Source: an uncultured bacterium (GTDB lineage Bacteria; Hydrothermota; Tepidihabitantia; Tepidihabitantales; DTDR01). Taken from it: a stretch of 64,000 nt of DNA. Under the pieces are notes generated by a model. It had not been told where the DNA came from, did not search any database, and saw nothing but the letters and a program-made list of their open reading frames with translations. Position numbers and translations under genes: made by a program. Of this stretch, positions 14,488 to 51,280 are shown piece after piece (within the stretch, counting starts at the first letter, position 1; each line of letters begins with the position of its first letter). The stretch is taken from contig CALHQW010000025.1 in the NCBI GenBank assembly GCA_938040315.1, positions 7,929 to 71,928 on the forward strand, read 5' to 3'.

Positions 14488-14859
14488 ATGGCCGAGGTGT
14501 ATATAAAACCAAAAAAGACGGTCCATATTGTGGCCGATTTTTATGGAATAGATGGAAAATTTATTTCTTGTGTAAAGGAGGTAAGGAAAGTATTAAAGAA
14601 AGCGATAGAAAAAGCAAAATTATCAGTAGTGGGTTCAAAATTTTTTCAGTTTGATCCTCACGGGGTAACGGGCATATTTTTATTAAAAGAATCTCATATT
14701 AGTGTCCATACTTGGCCAGAATACGGTTATATCGCTGTTGATATTTTCACCTGTAAAGATGATGGGAGTGCTTTTATTGCTTATAATTATTTATTAGAAA
14801 AATTAAAACCTAAAAAAGTAAAAAAAAGAATAATAATTAGGGAAGTATGGAAAAAATAA
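14488..14859 (+). CDS. speD: S-adenosylmethionine decarboxylase proenzyme
   Basis: HIVADFYG, GVTG..LLKESHISVHTWPE, VDIFTC; adjacent to an aminopropyltransferase. Confidence 0.88.
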   Translation: MAEVYIKPKKTVHIVADFYGIDGKFISCVKEVRKVLKKAIEKAKLSVVGSKFFQFDPHGVTGIFLLKESHISVHTWPEYGYIAVDIFTCKDDGSAFIAYNYLLEKLKPKKVKKRIIIREVWKK

Positions 14860-44690: not shown

Positions 44691-46484
44691 TTAAGACAAG
44701 TTATTTAAATATTGGATAATTTTTTGGGCAATATTTTTCGGAATACCAATTTTTATTATCTCTTCAATTTTTGCCCTTTTTATATCTTCAATACTACCAA
44801 AGGTATTTAAAAGAAGCAATTTTCTTTTCTTACCGATACCGGGAATTTCGTCCAATACTGATTTTTTTATACTTTTCTTTCTTAAAGTTTTATGGTAAGT
44901 AATAGCAAATCGATGGGCTTCATCTCTGATTCTTTTTAATAGTTTTAAAGCGGGTGAATAAGCGGGTATTGAGACAATTTTACCATCTTCAAAATATAAG
45001 GTATCGCTCTTTTTCGCAAAGGCTAAGATGGGGATATCTTTATTAAATTCTTTATAAACCTTATTGGCAACTTGTAAATGTCCTTTGCCACCATCTACTA
45101 ATACTAAATCCGGGAGAGGTTTATTTTCTTCAATTATTCTTCTTAATCTTCTTTTTAAAACCTCTTCCATCATTCCGTAATCATCTTGACCACTAATTGT
45201 TTTTATTTTGAATTTCCGATATTCACTCTTTTTTGGTTTTATTCCTTCAAAAACAACGATTGCGCCACAGGCATATTTACCAAAAAGATTAGAAATATCA
45301 ACTCCTTCAATCCTCATTGGTGTTTTTTCTAAGGATAGATAATTAGCAAGTTCAATATTAGCCTTTGGTAAATGGGGAGTGGGTAAGATTTCCAACAATT
45401 TTATCTCGGCATTTTTTTGAGCAAGATTAAGGAGTTTTTTCTTTTCTCCCCTTTTTGGAACAGTAATTTTAATTTTTATATTTTTTTTCTTTTCAATCGT
45501 TTCAATAAAGGTTTGGATTTCGGGAATTTCTTTTGGCAGAATTATTTCGTTAGGAATGTCATAACTATGGAGATAGACTGAGGATAAAAGGGTTTCTAAA
45601 ATCTCTTCTTCATTATTGGTTAAAGGAAGATGAAAAGGATATTCTTCTTTACTTATTAATTTTCCCTCTCTAATTTTAAGAATGAGAGCGATTGCCAAAT
45701 TTTTCTCTTTTTTAACACCAATCACATCCATTGATTTTTTATCTTTTAAGATTACCTCATGTTTTTTTCTTAATTCTTGGAGAGCGAATAGTTGGTTTCT
45801 TAAAATTGCTGCTTTTTCAAATTCCTCTTTTTGTGCTGCTTCCCACATTTTCTCTTCAATCTCCTTTATTAACTTTTCTGATTTTCCCATTAGAAATTCA
45901 ATTGTCTCCCTTACTCTTTCTTTATAAACTTCTTTATCAACCTTATTTTGGCAAGGTCCTAAACAGAGATTTAACCGGTAATTTAAACAAGGTTTTTCGG
46001 AAAGGGTTAACGGTAATTTTTTATTACAGGTTCTTATCTTAAAAATTTTTTTTACCAATCTTAATGCCTGTCTTAAATTTTTTGCTGAAGTATAAGGACC
46101 AAAGAGAATTGAGCCATCTTCTTTGAGATTTCTTGTTGGAAAAATCCTTGGATATTCTTCATTAATAGTAATTTTTAAATAAGGAAATTTTTTATCATCC
46201 TTTAAACGGATATTATATTTTGGCTTGTGGATTTTTATTAGATTATCTTCTAAGATTAGGGCATCGCTTTCCGAAGAGGTAACAATAATGTCCAATTCAA
46301 AGATTTCTTTTATTAAATTTGTTCTTCTAATATCAAACTGGGGTTGAAGATAATATTTTAATCTTTCTTTTAAATTTCTTGCCTTACCAATATAGATAAT
46401 TTTTCCTTCCCGATTTTTAAAAAGATAAACACCGGGTGAAGAAGGAGCATTGTTTATTTTATCTTCTAAGGAAGTGTTTGGCAT
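44691..46484 (-). CDS. uvrC: excinuclease ABC subunit C
   Basis: GIY-YIG (GVY...YIGKA), UVR, DISN, DGGKG, RDEAHRFA, HhH. Confidence 0.96.
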   Translation of the reverse strand: MPNTSLEDKINNAPSSPGVYLFKNREGKIIYIGKARNLKERLKYYLQPQFDIRRTNLIKEIFELDIIVTSSESDALILEDNLIKIHKPKYNIRLKDDKKFPYLKITINEEYPRIFPTRNLKEDGSILFGPYTSAKNLRQALRLVKKIFKIRTCNKKLPLTLSEKPCLNYRLNLCLGPCQNKVDKEVYKERVRETIEFLMGKSEKLIKEIEEKMWEAAQKEEFEKAAILRNQLFALQELRKKHEVILKDKKSMDVIGVKKEKNLAIALILKIREGKLISKEEYPFHLPLTNNEEEILETLLSSVYLHSYDIPNEIILPKEIPEIQTFIETIEKKKNIKIKITVPKRGEKKKLLNLAQKNAEIKLLEILPTPHLPKANIELANYLSLEKTPMRIEGVDISNLFGKYACGAIVVFEGIKPKKSEYRKFKIKTISGQDDYGMMEEVLKRRLRRIIEENKPLPDLVLVDGGKGHLQVANKVYKEFNKDIPILAFAKKSDTLYFEDGKIVSIPAYSPALKLLKRIRDEAHRFAITYHKTLRKKSIKKSVLDEIPGIGKKRKLLLLNTFGSIEDIKRAKIEEIIKIGIPKNIAQKIIQYLNNLS

Positions 46485-47944
46485 TAACCTTTAACAACAC
46501 CGAGAGGCCGCATCTTACAGACTCTTTTTGATATACCGGCATTATGACAGACATCAACAACCACATCAACATCTTTGTAGGCATCAGGCACTTCTTCTCT
46601 TAAAACCTCTTTACTTGCTGCCATTACAATAATATTTTTCCCTCTCAATTCCTGAGCAATATCTCGATTTCTGGTTTCGCGCAAAGCCCTTTCTCTTGAC
46701 CAAACTCTTCCTGCACCATGGCAGGTAGAACCAAAGGTTTCATAAAAGGCTCTTTCCGTACCAACAAGTAAATAAGAATTTGTTCCCATATCACCGGGGA
46801 TGATTACTGGTTGACCAATTTTCTTATATTCTTCTGGAATTTGAGGATGATTTGGTGGAAAGGCTCTCGTTGCTCCTTTTCGGTGGACACAAACGGTCTT
46901 TCTCTCACCATCAATTATATGCTCTTCAAATTTAGCAATATTATGGGCGACATCATAAATCAAATCCATTCCTAATTCTTCTACTGGTTTCTTTAATACC
47001 TGACTAAAGGCCTCTCTTACCCAATGGGTGATACATTGGCGATTTGCCCAAGCATAATTAGCAGCGCAAACCATCACACTATAATATTCTTTTCCCTCAG
47101 GTGATTCAATTGGTGCGCAAGCAAGTTGTTGATCAGGTAGTTTGATACCATATTTTTGCACTGCCTTTCTTAAATTTCTGATTGCGTCATCACAGATTTG
47201 ATAACCAAGCCCACGAGAACCGGTATGAATCATTACTGTTATCATCCCCTTTTCTAAACCAAAAACTTTAGCACATTCTTCATCATAAATAGTTTCAATA
47301 ACTTGGATTTCTAAGAAATGGTTTCCGGCACCAAGAGTACCAAGTTGGGGTGTTCCTCTTTCTAATGCCCTTTGAGATACCAAATCTGGTCTGGCACCTT
47401 TCATTTGGCCATTTTCTTCGGTAAATTTCAAATCTCTTTCTGTGCCAAATCCTTTTTCATAAGCCCATCTCGCGCCTTTTTCTAATACTTCCTTTACCTC
47501 TCGTTGGGAAATTCTTATTTTACCAGTAGAACCAACACCAGAAGGAACATTATGAAAAATACTTCTTACCAATTGCTCTAAAAGATTCTGTTTTAAATCT
47601 TTGATAGTTAGATTGGTTTTTAATAATCTAACACCACAATTAATATCATAACCCACACCACCGGGCGAGATCACTCCTTCTTTTAAATCAAAAGCAGCAA
47701 CACCGCCAATCGCGAATCCATAACCCCAATGGATATCAGGCATTGCCAGAGAATACTTTAATATTCCTGGTAAAGTTGCCACATTGGCTACTTGCTCTAA
47801 AGCCATCTCCTGTTTGATATGGGTTAAAAGTCTTTCATCCGCATAGACAACACCATCAACCCGCATCTCTCCTTTATAACTTTTTGGTACTTTGTAACGC
47901 CAATCATCAATTTTTATTAACGGTCCCTTCCAGCCATTTGACAT
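46484..47944 (-). CDS. rtcB: RNA-splicing ligase RtcB
   Basis: MPDIHWGYGFAIGG, DINCG, GNHFLE, HRKGAT, CHGAGR. Confidence 0.96.
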   Translation of the reverse strand: MSNGWKGPLIKIDDWRYKVPKSYKGEMRVDGVVYADERLLTHIKQEMALEQVANVATLPGILKYSLAMPDIHWGYGFAIGGVAAFDLKEGVISPGGVGYDINCGVRLLKTNLTIKDLKQNLLEQLVRSIFHNVPSGVGSTGKIRISQREVKEVLEKGARWAYEKGFGTERDLKFTEENGQMKGARPDLVSQRALERGTPQLGTLGAGNHFLEIQVIETIYDEECAKVFGLEKGMITVMIHTGSRGLGYQICDDAIRNLRKAVQKYGIKLPDQQLACAPIESPEGKEYYSVMVCAANYAWANRQCITHWVREAFSQVLKKPVEELGMDLIYDVAHNIAKFEEHIIDGERKTVCVHRKGATRAFPPNHPQIPEEYKKIGQPVIIPGDMGTNSYLLVGTERAFYETFGSTCHGAGRVWSRERALRETRNRDIAQELRGKNIIVMAASKEVLREEVPDAYKDVDVVVDVCHNAGISKRVCKMRPLGVVKG

Positions 47945-47964
47945 AATTAACCTCCAATTATATA

Positions 47965-48024
47965 ATTATATAAAAATAAAAAAATTTAGTCAATTATTGA
48001 TTTTTTTAAAATTTTAGATATTTT
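47965..48024. promoter_or_regulatory. divergent sigma-70 promoters (rtcB and speB)
   Basis: Minus: TTGACT(47993)-N17-TATAAT(47970). Plus: TTGATT(47997)-N16-TATTTT(48019). Confidence 0.55.
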
Positions 48025-48030
48025 TTTTCA

Positions 48031-48855
48031 ATGAGTTTTTATTTTGCCAATGCTAATTTAAAAGAAGCCAATATTTTAATTTTGGGTATTGGATATGATA
48101 AAACCTCTTCTTTTATTTCTGGTTCTCGGTTTGCTCCTAATTTAATTCGGGAAGGAGCGGAAAATATTGAGACTTATAGCCCTTATCAAAGGCGGGATTT
48201 AACAGAAATTAAGATTTGTGATTTAGGAAATTTCATCTTTCAAAAGGAAAAACCCGAAGATTTCATAAAAGAGGTAAGGCAAGTTATAAAAGATTATTTA
48301 AAAGATAAAAAGAAAATAGTAATTCTTGGTGGTGAACACACAATCACCTATCCAATTGTGATGGCTTTTCAGGAGTATTATAAAAATTTAGCAGTAATTA
48401 TCTTTGATGCCCATTCAGATTTGAGAGATGATTTTATGGGTGAAAAAATTTGTCACGCCACAGTGGCAAAAAGAATTTTGGAAGTTGTGGGAAAAGAAAA
48501 TCTTTATCAATTTGGAATCCGCTCTTTAACGAAAGATTGTTTAAAGAAAAATCCTAACCTTTTTCTTTTTGAAGTTTTTAAGCCATTAAAAAAAGTTATT
48601 TCTTCCTTGAAAAATAAAAAAATTTATTTATCTTTAGATTTAGATGTTTTAGATATGAGTTTGTTGCCCGTGGTTCAGACGCCAGTTCCTGGTGGAATTA
48701 GTTTTTTAGAATTGGTTACTTCTTTTAAGTTATTAAAAAATTTAGAAATTGTTGGTGTTGATATCGTAGAATTTTCTCCCCTTTTAAATAATCCTTTAAC
48801 CTATGCTTCCCTTTGTGCTGAAATTCTGCGGGAAGTTCTTCTCCTAATAAAATAA
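48031..48855 (+). CDS. speB: agmatinase (ureohydrolase)
   Basis: GGEHTIT, DAHSDLR, SLDLDVLD, TPVPGG, DIVE. Confidence 0.88.
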   Translation: MSFYFANANLKEANILILGIGYDKTSSFISGSRFAPNLIREGAENIETYSPYQRRDLTEIKICDLGNFIFQKEKPEDFIKEVRQVIKDYLKDKKKIVILGGEHTITYPIVMAFQEYYKNLAVIIFDAHSDLRDDFMGEKICHATVAKRILEVVGKENLYQFGIRSLTKDCLKKNPNLFLFEVFKPLKKVISSLKNKKIYLSLDLDVLDMSLLPVVQTPVPGGISFLELVTSFKLLKNLEIVGVDIVEFSPLLNNPLTYASLCAEILREVLLLIK

Positions 48856-48856
48856 G

Positions 48857-49012
48857 ATGTGTTGCCAAGTATGTAATCTTTTTAACTTTTGTAAAAATAA
48901 GAATGAGAGTTGTTGTGAGAAATGTAAATATTTTGATTCTTGCATGGCGATGACTAAGGAGGATAAAAGAGAAAAGATGATTTATAATAAGAAATTAAAA
49001 AAAAGGAAATAA
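48857..49012 (+). CDS. small basic Cys-rich protein, 51 aa, 2x CCxxCx5C
   Basis: Manual translation MCCQVCNLFNFCKNKNESCCEKCKYFDSCMAMTKEDKREKMIYNKKLKKRK; ATG 1 nt after the speB stop; below ORF-track cutoff. Confidence 0.8.
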   Translation: MCCQVCNLFNFCKNKNESCCEKCKYFDSCMAMTKEDKREKMIYNKKLKKRK

Positions 49013-49024
49013 AAGGAGGAGAAG

Positions 49025-49201
49025 ATGTGCTGTGGAATCTGCCCAGAATACGATGATTGTGAAAAGTTAGAAAGATTAAAGAACTACTGTTGTGAAGAAT
49101 GTCCGGATTATGAAGAATGTATAGGCGGAGCAAGAGAAGATTTTTATGATTTTAAATATGATTTTAAAGAGGATTACGATAGTGAGGAGGAAGATTTTTA
49201 G
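49025..49201 (+). CDS. small acidic Cys-rich protein, 58 aa, 2x CCxxCx5C
   Basis: Manual translation MCCGICPEYDDCEKLERLKNYCCEECPDYEECIGGAREDFYDFKYDFKEDYDSEEEDF; AAGGAGG SD; below ORF-track cutoff. Confidence 0.88.
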   Translation: MCCGICPEYDDCEKLERLKNYCCEECPDYEECIGGAREDFYDFKYDFKEDYDSEEEDF

Positions 49202-49213
49202 TTTTTCCATTTA

Positions 49214-49242
49214 TTGACTTTAATTTTAAATTTTTTTATTAT
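49214..49242 (+). promoter_or_regulatory. sigma-70 promoter of PPIase operon
   Basis: TTGACT-N17-TATTAT. Confidence 0.55.
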
Positions 49243-49274
49243 TGATTAAGGTTTTAATTTAAAAGGAGTGGAAA

Positions 49275-50069
49275 ATGAAGAGAGTGATCACTTTTTTCTT
49301 ACTTTTGTGTGGATTTTTCTCTTGTCAGGAAGAGAAACCAGTAATAAAAATTGGTAATAAAAAGATTACTAAGGATGAAATTCTTGCGCAAATTCCCCAG
49401 GAGGTTAATTTAAATGAACAAAATTTGATGTCAATCTTAGAAAGAATTGTAAATAGTGAACTTATTTATCTGGCTGCTCAAAAAAGGGGGTTAACTAAGG
49501 ATAAGAGGTTACAAATGAAATTAAAAGCCTTAGAAAGGGATTTCTTCGCTAACGCCCTCATTGAAGAAGAAGCAAAAAAGATTTCCATCTCGCAGAAAGA
49601 AATAGTTGACTATTATAATCAACATAAAGAAGATTTTCTTTCGGAGATTAAAATTAGAAGGATCGTTGTTTATGATGATGATTTGGCAAATAGAATTTAT
49701 GAGGAGTTAAAAGGTGGAAGAGATTTTGTTTCCTTAGCAAAGGAATACTCTCAAGACCAACTTTTGCCAAGAGGAGAAGAATCTAAATATTTTCCAAGAG
49801 GATTTTTAACCGATCCTATCTTGGAAGAGGAGATTTTTTCTTTGAAAATTAATGAGTTTACTTCACCAATAAAATCACAAGAAGGATATCAGATTATTCA
49901 ATTAGTGGATAAAAAGAAAGTGAAGAAAGATATTTCCTTACAGGAAGTAGAAGATTATATTAAACAGATATTACAATATAAAAAAGGTTATGAAATGTTG
50001 AATAAAATGCTTTTAGATTTGAGAGAAAAATACAAAGTGAGTTATTATCCGGAAAATTTCTTTAAATGA
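49275..50069 (+). CDS. parvulin-type peptidyl-prolyl isomerase lipoprotein (PrsA/PpiC-like)
   Basis: Lipobox FFSC, FVSLAKEYSQD, SPIKSQEGYQII. Confidence 0.85.
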   Translation: MKRVITFFLLLCGFFSCQEEKPVIKIGNKKITKDEILAQIPQEVNLNEQNLMSILERIVNSELIYLAAQKRGLTKDKRLQMKLKALERDFFANALIEEEAKKISISQKEIVDYYNQHKEDFLSEIKIRRIVVYDDDLANRIYEELKGGRDFVSLAKEYSQDQLLPRGEESKYFPRGFLTDPILEEEIFSLKINEFTSPIKSQEGYQIIQLVDKKKVKKDISLQEVEDYIKQILQYKKGYEMLNKMLLDLREKYKVSYYPENFFK

Positions 50070-51280
50070 TATATTTTTTAATATTTTTTCTTTTCTCCTC
50101 CTTTTCTTACGATTATATTGTTGCTTATGTGGATGATGAGATTATTCTTTATTCCGAATTTCAAAAAAACTATTTTTTACTAAAAGAATTTTCCTCTCCC
50201 CTTATTGATACCAATCTTTTAAAAGATTCTTTATTAAATAGTTTGATTAATGGAAAAATTATTCTGAAAGAAGCGGAAAAAGAAACAATTGAGATAAAGG
50301 AAAAGGAATTGGAGAATATTTGGAAAGAAAGGTTAGAAAAGATAAAAGAAAATTTTTTAACCGACGAGACTTTATTAGAAAAGGCAAGAGAATTTATTAT
50401 AAATAATCTTCGTCAGGAATTGTTAATTCAAAAATTGTTGGCAAAAAAAAATCGTTTAAATATTACGATTAATCCTTGGGAATTAAAAGAGTTTTATGAA
50501 GAGATAAAAGATTCTTTGGCAAAAAAACCGGCAGTTTGTGAGATTGCTCATATCTTTTTGCCAATTTTACCCAGTGAAGAGAAAGAAAGGAAGGCTCAAA
50601 GAAGGATCAGCGAGATTTACGAAATCTTACTTAGAGGTGGCGATTTTGAAGAGCTTTGTAAGAGTTTTTCTGATGATAAAAAGACAAAAACGAAAGGAGG
50701 TTATTTGGGTGAATTTTTAATTGATAGTTTATCTTTAGAATTTCAAAAGGCTTTGAAGGAGTTAAAAGTTGGCGAATTTTCTCCTCCTCTGAGAAGTGAA
50801 AAGGGATATCATATTGTGAAAAAATTGGGTGAGACAAAAAACCGAGTTAAAATTGCTCACCTTTTTGTAGAAGTACCGATAGATAAAGAAGATACTTTAC
50901 AGACAAAAAAATTAATTCTAAAAATAAGAGAAAAAGCCATCAAAGGTGAGGATTTTGGAATTTTGGCAAAAGAATATTCTTATGATTTAGAAACCAAAGA
51001 AAAGGGAGGCTACCTCGGAGAATTTGTTATTACCTTTCTTTTTTCACCCTTTAAAGAAGTCTGTGAAAAACTGGATAGCGGTGAAATCTCTGAACCAGTT
51101 TTATCAAAAGAAGGTTTCCATTTAATAAAAATGTTGAGAAAAGAGAAAGAAAGGATTTTGTCTTTTTTGGAGATTCAAGAGGATTTGAGAAATTTTCTCT
51201 ATCAAAAGAAATTGATAGCAATTATTAATGAATATTTAAGAGAAGTAAAGGAAAATCATTTTATAAAAGTGAATTTTTGA
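50066..51280 (+). CDS. SurA-like chaperone with two parvulin domains
   Basis: IVAYVDDEII N-domain; two F..L.K.[FY]S.D...KGGYLG domains. Confidence 0.88.
   Translation: MIYFLIFFLFSSFSYDYIVAYVDDEIILYSEFQKNYFLLKEFSSPLIDTNLLKDSLLNSLINGKIILKEAEKETIEIKEKELENIWKERLEKIKENFLTDETLLEKAREFIINNLRQELLIQKLLAKKNRLNITINPWELKEFYEEIKDSLAKKPAVCEIAHIFLPILPSEEKERKAQRRISEIYEILLRGGDFEELCKSFSDDKKTKTKGGYLGEFLIDSLSLEFQKALKELKVGEFSPPLRSEKGYHIVKKLGETKNRVKIAHLFVEVPIDKEDTLQTKKLILKIREKAIKGEDFGILAKEYSYDLETKEKGGYLGEFVITFLFSPFKEVCEKLDSGEISEPVLSKEGFHLIKMLRKEKERILSFLEIQEDLRNFLYQKKLIAIINEYLREVKENHFIKVNF

Follow-up and report, generated by a model that had tools for sequence, protein, structure and literature searches.

Clostridial 2[4Fe-4S] ferredoxins are acidic proteins of about 55 amino acids (aa) whose eight cysteines are arranged in two sets of four. 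Here, we describe two small proteins, A and B, of which B is alike in size, cysteine number and acidity. Their genes lie directly 3' of speB, the agmatinase gene, in a 64,000-nucleotide (nt) stretch of DNA (hereafter the window) from an uncultured bacterium of the phylum WOR-3 (source genome 1.49 Mb, 98%-complete). Each protein starts with MCC and carries two exact CCxxCx5C units, in contrast to the CxxCxxCxxxCP motif of the ferredoxins. Small ferredoxin-like proteins are also described in the cited part of PMC12704099.

The spacing Cys-X2-Cys-X5-Cys that is found in each unit accounts for three of the four ligands of the [4Fe-4S] cluster in WhiB proteins (passage in PMC5462746) and in endonuclease III/MutY (passage in PMC11138216). 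The Wbl (WhiB-like) proteins of actinobacteria resemble A and B in their small size, the CxxCx5C spacing and a charged C-terminal tail. However, their fourth cysteine is located 14-22 residues upstream, whereas in A and B it is vicinal (CC) and the whole unit is doubled; phylum and gene context are different as well. In endonuclease III/MutY the same spacing is part of a loop (Cys-X6-Cys-X2-Cys-X5-Cys) that forms one sub-domain within a large glycosylase, whereas here it makes up a whole protein and is present in two copies. Sequence homology to endonuclease III/MutY was detected neither in a PDB profile search nor with Pfam on 40 members of the family.

Archaeal zinc-finger micro-proteins (C(P)XCG in Haloferax, CxxC-x17-CxxC in Methanosarcina) are likewise about 40-60 aa in length with little beyond a Cys4 metal site, and many of those treated in the cited part of PMC12704099 are without known partners. 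A and B differ from them by the vicinal CC and the x5 spacing, by the lack of CPxCG, and by being bacterial and fixed behind an enzyme gene. Small metal-handling genes that adjoin a gene for an enzyme of the ureohydrolase family are found at the Ni-dependent ureohydrolases GdmH, MefH and DmgH, which, according to the cited part of PMC11399263, need the neighbouring hypA/hypB chaperones. There, the chaperone genes are upstream and the enzymes Ni-dependent, and HypA/HypB have no sequence relationship to A and B; here, SpeB scores like any agmatinase equivalog, and the mini-proteins are absent from many relatives.

Two cysteine-rich genes behind speB

The open reading frames (ORFs) A and B are listed in Table 1. 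The A protein (MCCQVCNLFNFC...CCEKCKYFDSC...KKLKKRK) has a net charge (K+R minus D+E) of +8, the B protein (MCCGICPEYDDC...CCEECPDYEEC...DYDSEEEDF) one of -15, and the two genes are 12 nt apart. The DNA pattern for CCxxCx5C is present four times in the window, whereas 100 shuffles had 0.01 on average; this excludes a chance origin of the copies. Genome-wide it was found five times; four of these stem from A and B and the fifth is interrupted by a stop codon. The exact A protein is not in a collection of 15 billion proteins, in which B is present; A was apparently overlooked when genes were called in this genome.

The product of speB scored 229.4 bits with TIGR01230 (equivalog cut-off 174.3) and matched PF00491 (Arginase) with an expect value (E) of 2.2e-61. 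H103, D126, H128, D130, D203 and D205 are invariant in 16/16 aligned SpeB proteins of WOR-3, as are the GGEH, DAHxD and LDxD positions; the GGEH, DAHxD and xDxDxxD positions we take to be the ligands of the dimetal centre. The SpeB of the window looks catalytically intact. An agmatinase of Methanocaldococcus jannaschii is reportedly Fe(II)-dependent, which we do not count as evidence here. A preliminary description of the window, made from the letters alone, was accurate in all its details (the coordinates, MCC starts, doubled CCxxCx5C, charges, AAGGAGG site and 1-nt gap to speB), and its identification of the agmatinase gene, its argument that four copies of one cysteine spacing are not due to chance and its view of A and B as paralogs of one family without a recognised name all hold up.

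Indeed, M1 and all eight cysteines are invariant in 40/40 aligned relatives, at identities to A between 24 and 92%. The alignment separates into two types. In the A-type (n=21; signature MCC..C.....C...CC.[QK]C.YF.SCM), F26, S28 and M30 are invariant in addition to the eight cysteines in 21/21 sequences (YFDSCM). In the B-type (n=19; signature MCC..CP.Y..C...CC..CP.Y..C), P7 and P27 are invariant along with the eight cysteines in 19/19, so that a proline follows the third cysteine of each unit (CPxY). All ORFs extracted from genomes of the order share this architecture, and members are conserved in small AT-rich genomes as well as in GC-rich ones. The tails of A-type proteins have an acidic-then-basic layout, alike with and without B, and their basic end contains an aromatic residue (KKRY/KRRF; motif KKR[YF]xKK); B-type tails end in [DE][DE][FY]. 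Net charges of B-type proteins range from -9 to -23 and those of A-type proteins outside the genus of the window from about -2 to +6, with the counts on proteins of other lineages made by eye, at least in part. The strong positive charge of A (+8) is therefore special to the genus of the window.

Variation at the nucleotide level has the pattern of coding sequence. In gene A of six congeners third codon positions account for 31 of 42 variable columns, and in the core of gene B among congeners for 20 of 36 (both counted by eye). Cysteine codons alternate between TGT and TGC among congeners but are never lost as cysteine. Of 12 family genes from genomes far apart, 10 have GGAGG at a distance of 5-10 nt upstream of their MCC start; of the remaining two, one has GGGGAG and the other is A of the window, which is without a Shine-Dalgarno sequence but coupled to the stop of speB. 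Since GGAGG before MCC is conserved in other members, the 20-residue N-terminal extensions ahead of MCC in two library A-type proteins of 76-77 aa (P0007, P0010) are probably mis-called starts in GC-rich genomes. Taken together, the cysteine invariance, the codon-position bias, the Shine-Dalgarno sites and the motif count argue, at the level of sequence, that A and B are genuine genes and paralogs of one conserved, unnamed family.

No Pfam or NCBIfam model matched the family significantly when 40 members were scanned. Membership in DUF2769 (PF10967) was rejected: B reached 13.9 bits (gathering threshold 22.8, E 0.083), A gave no match, and weak matches were found for 3/40 members (best E 0.083). 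It should be added that DUF2769 is also a Cys-rich, function-unassigned family, and that residues 23-41 of B align to positions 3-21 of its profile. WhiB (PF02467) was matched by 1/40 members with an E of 0.28, far below significance. Ferredoxin models of Pfam were not matched by any of the 40 at E up to 1, and CxxCxxCxxxCP is absent. Bacterial metallothioneins of the SmtA/BmtA type were rejected as well, with no Pfam or NCBIfam match at E up to 1 for the 40 members and with cysteine positions that are strictly fixed. Neither was there an NCBIfam match to SCIFF or another Cys-rich precursor of ribosomally synthesized and post-translationally modified peptides (RiPPs), or a conserved maturase neighbour in the loci examined.

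A profile search of PDB sequences gave no relative, only two chance-level matches to CHCH-type subunits of complex I (E 0.95 and 1.3). AlphaFold2 predicted short helices around the cysteine units and disordered tails, with middling confidence. With these models, whose quality limits what a fold search can tell, Foldseek found 0 matches for A in the PDB; in a wide VIA-align search the best Z was 2.5 for A, and B had no match at Z >= 2. In the ESM Atlas the nearest clusters of B are unnamed (0.85-0.86) and the nearest named one of an A-type protein is 'Ral' (0.75); neither result reaches the level of a lead. In the full text of the literature, supplements aside, the pattern CCX2CX5C of the family was not found described (one unrelated peptide-library paper came up); no paper that links WOR-3 with agmatinase was found, and nothing relevant came up on WOR-3 and polyamines or on agmatinase with a cysteine-rich small protein.

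Linkage to speB in WOR-3 and distribution of the family

Carriers were counted in 61 genomes of the order and in a sample of 251 genomes of the phylum; within the order, the coordinates of B-query and profile matches were compared with those of matches to an agmatinase hidden Markov model (HMM). With B as query, matches were found in 48/61 genomes of the order (E up to 1). A profile of both paralogs detected the family in 52/251 genomes of the phylum, and these matches are confined to the order of the window and two further families of the same class: f1 (4/4 genomes), f2 (28/37), f3 (2/2), f4 (4/4), f5 (10/10), f10 (2/2) and f11 (1/1). Other families of the phylum were not matched by the profile, for example f6 (0/22), f7 (0/13) and f21 (0/20).

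The agmatinase HMM matched in 60/61 genomes of the order, in 59/61 above the TIGR01230 cut-off. The family is carried by 51/61, and all 51 encode it on the strand of speB, no more than ~250 nt past the speB match in the 3' direction; in one of these genomes (G017) a contig end falls at the junction, where the last SpeB residues can still be seen. The three carriers outside the order likewise have the gene directly downstream of speB. Thus, the family is found directly behind speB in 54/54 WOR-3 carrier genomes, which supports the link to agmatinase made in the preliminary description. The genes 5' of speB vary among genomes (RtcB, LpxB-like, epimerase-like, membrane proteins).

What stands in the slot differs. 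The layout speB-A-B is present in 17 genomes of the order, speB with a single copy in 32 (A-type in 7/7 examined) and speB-B in two (G025, G027). Of the carriers outside the order, G215 possesses both A and B, as overlapping genes, and G193 and G233 have B alone. A locus labelled Latescibacterota also has the layout speB-A-B. The slot behind speB is thus retained with A, with B and with both. In the congener G005 A is intact, but B (L074, 2091-2297) is a decayed remnant that lacks the start codon and has lost 54 nt by deletion; despite the decay of B, the promoter-like TTGACT..TATTAT that belongs to the following gene has been conserved. In the window, the site TTGACA-17-TATAAT ahead of speB is, by its match to the consensus, the likely start of a speB-A-B transcription unit, and the promoter-like site of the next gene would mark its 3' boundary. 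Among sequencing runs, a DNA run, possibly of the source sample, is the one listed as containing this DNA, and no RNA run is listed.

An exhaustive HMM search over 1.84 billion representative proteins (E up to 1e-3) gave only 66 clusters, all of 39-91 aa and nearly all starting at MCC, and no fused or multidomain form was among them. By eye, ~11 are A-like and ~55 acidic and B-like; in their sources the members are named 'hypothetical protein' at most, or are unnamed. A scan of metagenomes with divergent B-like proteins added 18 loci, five of which had enough flank and were examined. Apparently, the acidic type is the wider family, and the A-type and the linkage to speB are specialities of the WOR-3 clade.

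Possible roles of A and B

Based on the eight invariant cysteines and the analogy of CxxCx5C with [4Fe-4S] proteins, metal binding by A and B is a reasonable assumption. The first 32-33 residues with the twin units would fold around metal. Four cysteines per unit, doubled, amount to eight ligands, which suggests a protein with two Cys4 sites; for these we favour [4Fe-4S] clusters, since CxxCx5C is the three-ligand signature of the clusters in endonuclease III/MutY and WhiB, with Zn(Cys)4 as the main alternative. The remainder would be a charged disordered tail, acidic-then-basic in A and, in B, acidic and aromatic with a terminal D/E-F/Y. A signal peptide was not seen in A or B by eye, and the family may thus be pictured as cytoplasmic proteins of ~40-60 aa that are co-transcribed with speB.

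Since the conserved speB slot is filled by either paralog, the shared core may serve agmatinase or polyamine synthesis. We tentatively favour the explanation that A and B are metal-thiolate mini-proteins and an accessory, dispensable in itself, either to SpeB or to polyamine synthesis. Selection in one clade of WOR-3 would then keep at least one member directly behind the agmatinase gene. The core function, to deliver or protect the metal centre of SpeB or to tune the enzyme to the redox or metal state, could be supplied by either paralog, and the tails would set partner specificity. The ureohydrolases with adjacent metallochaperone genes, as far as they are covered in the source cited above, are a precedent for such an accessory.

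Several observations speak against this explanation. Agmatinase does not need the family, since speB occurs without it, both in the same order and throughout other parts of the phylum. No family match was obtained in 199 of the 251 sampled WOR-3 genomes. Within the order, speB is without the family in nine genomes (G032, G035, G038, G041, G046, G048, G049, G050, G059), the tenth genome without a match (G045) being also without detectable speB. In G038 and G049 a convergent next gene abuts speB and leaves no room for A; in G041 the contig stops 186 nt past speB, too soon to tell whether the family is present. Inspection by eye of an alignment of SpeB from 8 carriers and 8 non-carriers revealed no residue that separates them. 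Nor is the family intrinsically an agmatinase partner, because metagenomic relatives stand apart from speB: the B-like gene was without an adjoining speB or A-type gene in 5/5 loci examined (L076, L077, L085, L088, L091), of which L091 has a B-like stretch that matches in part only, with one motif hit. The adjacency may in part simply have been inherited, because a convergent gene further downstream, probably for a beta-propeller protein, is also syntenic in several families. Furthermore, metal binding is itself deduced from sequence; homology to HypA/HypB or likeness to any known chaperone was looked for and rejected, with no Pfam or NCBIfam match; and the AlphaFold2 models are of middling quality (mean predicted local distance difference test score 65.3 for A and 62.2 for B; predicted template modelling score 0.33 and 0.36).

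A more specific version of the accessory function would be that of iron-sulfur or metal mini-chaperones dedicated to the ureohydrolase, in which the twin core with its free N-terminal (M)CC hands iron or another metal to the dimetal centre of agmatinase or protects it against redox damage, and B acts as a release or competition factor via its acidic, aromatic-ended tail. We consider this quite unlikely. A predicted complex of SpeB, A, 2 Mn and 2 Zn, run without controls, scored 0.01 and 0.00 versus a mark of 0.32, which speaks neither for binding nor against it. WOR-3 bacteria are presumably anaerobes, and if the mini-chaperones were real, their polyamine synthesis would be coupled to the metal or redox state.

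The proteins could also work independently of agmatinase, as a free-standing mini-ferredoxin or metal buffer (an electron carrier or a metallothionein-like store), with the adjacency to speB as an inherited operon that gives expression. The stand-alone B-like genes, the nine speB genes without the family, the syntenic propeller gene and the likeness of B to clostridial ferredoxins would all fit, and we regard this as possible, if doubtful. It leaves unexplained why all 54 WOR-3 carriers hold the gene behind speB while the upstream neighbours change, and why either paralog retains the slot. Moreover, the ferredoxin motif is absent, the 40 members scanned matched neither ferredoxins nor metallothioneins, and aromatic residues are abundant in the family, unlike in typical metallothioneins.

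A role as a Wbl-like redox or iron sensor is unlikely in our view. Here, A would bind DNA or RNA via a [4Fe-4S] core and its basic end and regulate the operon or polyamine-dependent targets, and B would be an acidic decoy that titrates A. Wbl and MutY carry CxxCP, as does B, and CxxCx5C is common to WhiB and the DNA glycosylases in the passages introduced above; the basic patch with an aromatic residue at the end of A-type tails, the weak WhiB match of one member and an unrelated small basic protein that precedes the B-like gene in two metagenomic loci are in line with it. But the net charge of A-type proteins outside the genus is only about -2 to +6, B alone follows speB in four genomes and single copies (A in the seven examined) in 32, a helix-turn-helix or other known DNA-binding fold was not found, and the WhiB model is far from significance. 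A scan of 47700-49500 with Rfam gave no element at E up to 1, and no obvious operator was seen there. The idea of the preliminary description that a nucleic-acid binder is paired with an acidic antagonist is, as it was put, unsupported by these data. Its suggestion that the acidic partner could bind polyamines, by way of the tail, is purely speculative.

The same description had put forward a conserved basic-plus-acidic pair that forms an electrostatic heterodimer. Adjacent paralogs with opposite tails do occur, in 17/61 genomes of the order and, among the other carriers, in G215, they are tightly spaced (overlapping in G215), and KKR[YF]xKK and the C-terminal [DE][DE][FY] look complementary. 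Single-copy layouts dominate, however (32 single, and 2 + 2 with B alone). An obligate A-B heterodimer, in which the paralogs work only as an oppositely charged pair, is very unlikely given these single copies, the decay of B in G005 while A is conserved at the 90% class, the B-like proteins elsewhere without A, and A tails that are alike with and without B. A facultative contact is possible, based on the complementary tails and the small basic protein before the B-like gene at two loci. Finally, that A and B have no protein function of their own and are chance ORFs, Cys-rich leader peptides or RiPP precursors is extremely improbable: the ORFs are short and below the usual gene-calling cut-offs, exact A is missing from the large protein collection and short Cys-rich peptides are typical of RiPP precursors, but the conservation, codon-position bias and Shine-Dalgarno sites speak against it, as do the position downstream of speB and not ahead of a regulated gene, the order of a conserved N-terminal part and a variable tail (opposite to that in a leader-core precursor), the lack of a maturase or exporter among conserved neighbours and the lack of an NCBIfam match to SCIFF or any other model.

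Genomic surroundings and meaning

The features of the window and of the loci used for comparison are collected in Table 1. In the 86-nt spacer between rtcB and speB, perfect or near-perfect -35/-10 sites stand back to back, at 47938-47966 (+) and 47993-47965 (-). The other polyamine genes of the genome, for a pyruvoyl arginine decarboxylase (PvlArgDC), an S-adenosylmethionine (AdoMet) decarboxylase and a spermine-synthase domain, are scattered and not clustered.

Table 1 Positions of genes and sites in the window and in other loci
Feature	Location	Strand	Remarks
speB, agmatinase (ureohydrolase family)	48031..48855	+	274 aa; TIGR01230 + PF00491; TAA ends at 48855
Gene A	48857..49012	+	51-aa mini-protein, A-type, acidic-then-basic tail; ATG at 48857, 1 nt past speB stop
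Shine-Dalgarno of gene B, AAGGAGG	49013..49019	+	5 nt ahead of the ATG of B
Gene B	49025..49201	+	58-aa mini-protein, acidic B-type; acidic, aromatic tail ending EDF
Promoter-like TTGACA-17-TATAAT	47938..47966	+	5' of speB; 12/12 consensus matches, from a consensus scan alone
Promoter-like TTGACT-17-TATTAT	49214..49242	+	of next gene (peptidyl-prolyl isomerase (PPIase), 49275-50069); consensus scan
Two PPIase/SurA-like genes	49275..51280		in the genus of the window, in place of the propeller gene
rtcB, RNA ligase	46484..47944	-	PF01139, E 9.1e-182; divergent from speB
AdoMet decarboxylase gene	~14524..14841	+	PF02675, E 2.3e-35; ~33 kb upstream of speB; contig positions 22452-22769
Convergent propeller gene (probable), other loci	L036 2790-4919; L037 5252-7441; L042 2738-4903; L043 2801-4945		
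Convergent propeller gene (probable), further loci	L028 5700-7835; L070 4105-6252; L059 4392-6500		
Signal-peptide acidic protein	L085 4587-4955; L091 1641-2015; L088 940-1356; L076 3353-3750		upstream of stand-alone B-like genes; split into two ORFs in L076
Small basic protein	L088 1386-1523; L076 3976-4182		45-68 aa; directly 5' of the B-like gene

Downstream of speB-A-(B), several WOR-3 families have a convergent gene for a repeat-rich protein of ~700 aa, which is the probable beta-propeller mentioned above. It ends in a C-terminal tail 'YPNP[CF]', presumably for sorting of the type IX secretion system kind.

Upstream of the stand-alone B-like genes of the metagenomic loci a homologous acidic protein with a signal peptide is encoded; it gave weak matches to DUF5666 that did not reach the cut-off (E 6.9e-06 and 0.0035). 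The basic protein ('..KYIRRQK..') directly before the B-like gene in two of these loci is without the cysteine motif and had no Pfam match; possibly, it serves the acidic type as an unrelated basic partner.

A and B represent an undescribed family of small proteins with a cysteine pattern that was not found in the full-text literature. By kind, they fall into a known class, that of cysteine-rich micro-proteins which presumably bind metal (compare the part of PMC12704099 cited above). Small proteins under the cut-offs of gene calling are systematically missed, and the sequence of A is an example. The charge-inverted paralogs are a rare natural experiment, and the linkage of the family to a central enzyme of polyamine metabolism in an uncultured phylum is unusually strict. 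If the proteins do not act on agmatinase, they would still offer a compact new metal-binding scaffold of ~32 residues, as far as the sequence tells, that is easily made and studied. If they do bind an iron-sulfur cluster or another metal and act on agmatinase, they would represent a new type of accessory to an enzyme, one that links polyamine synthesis to the metal or redox state in anaerobes.

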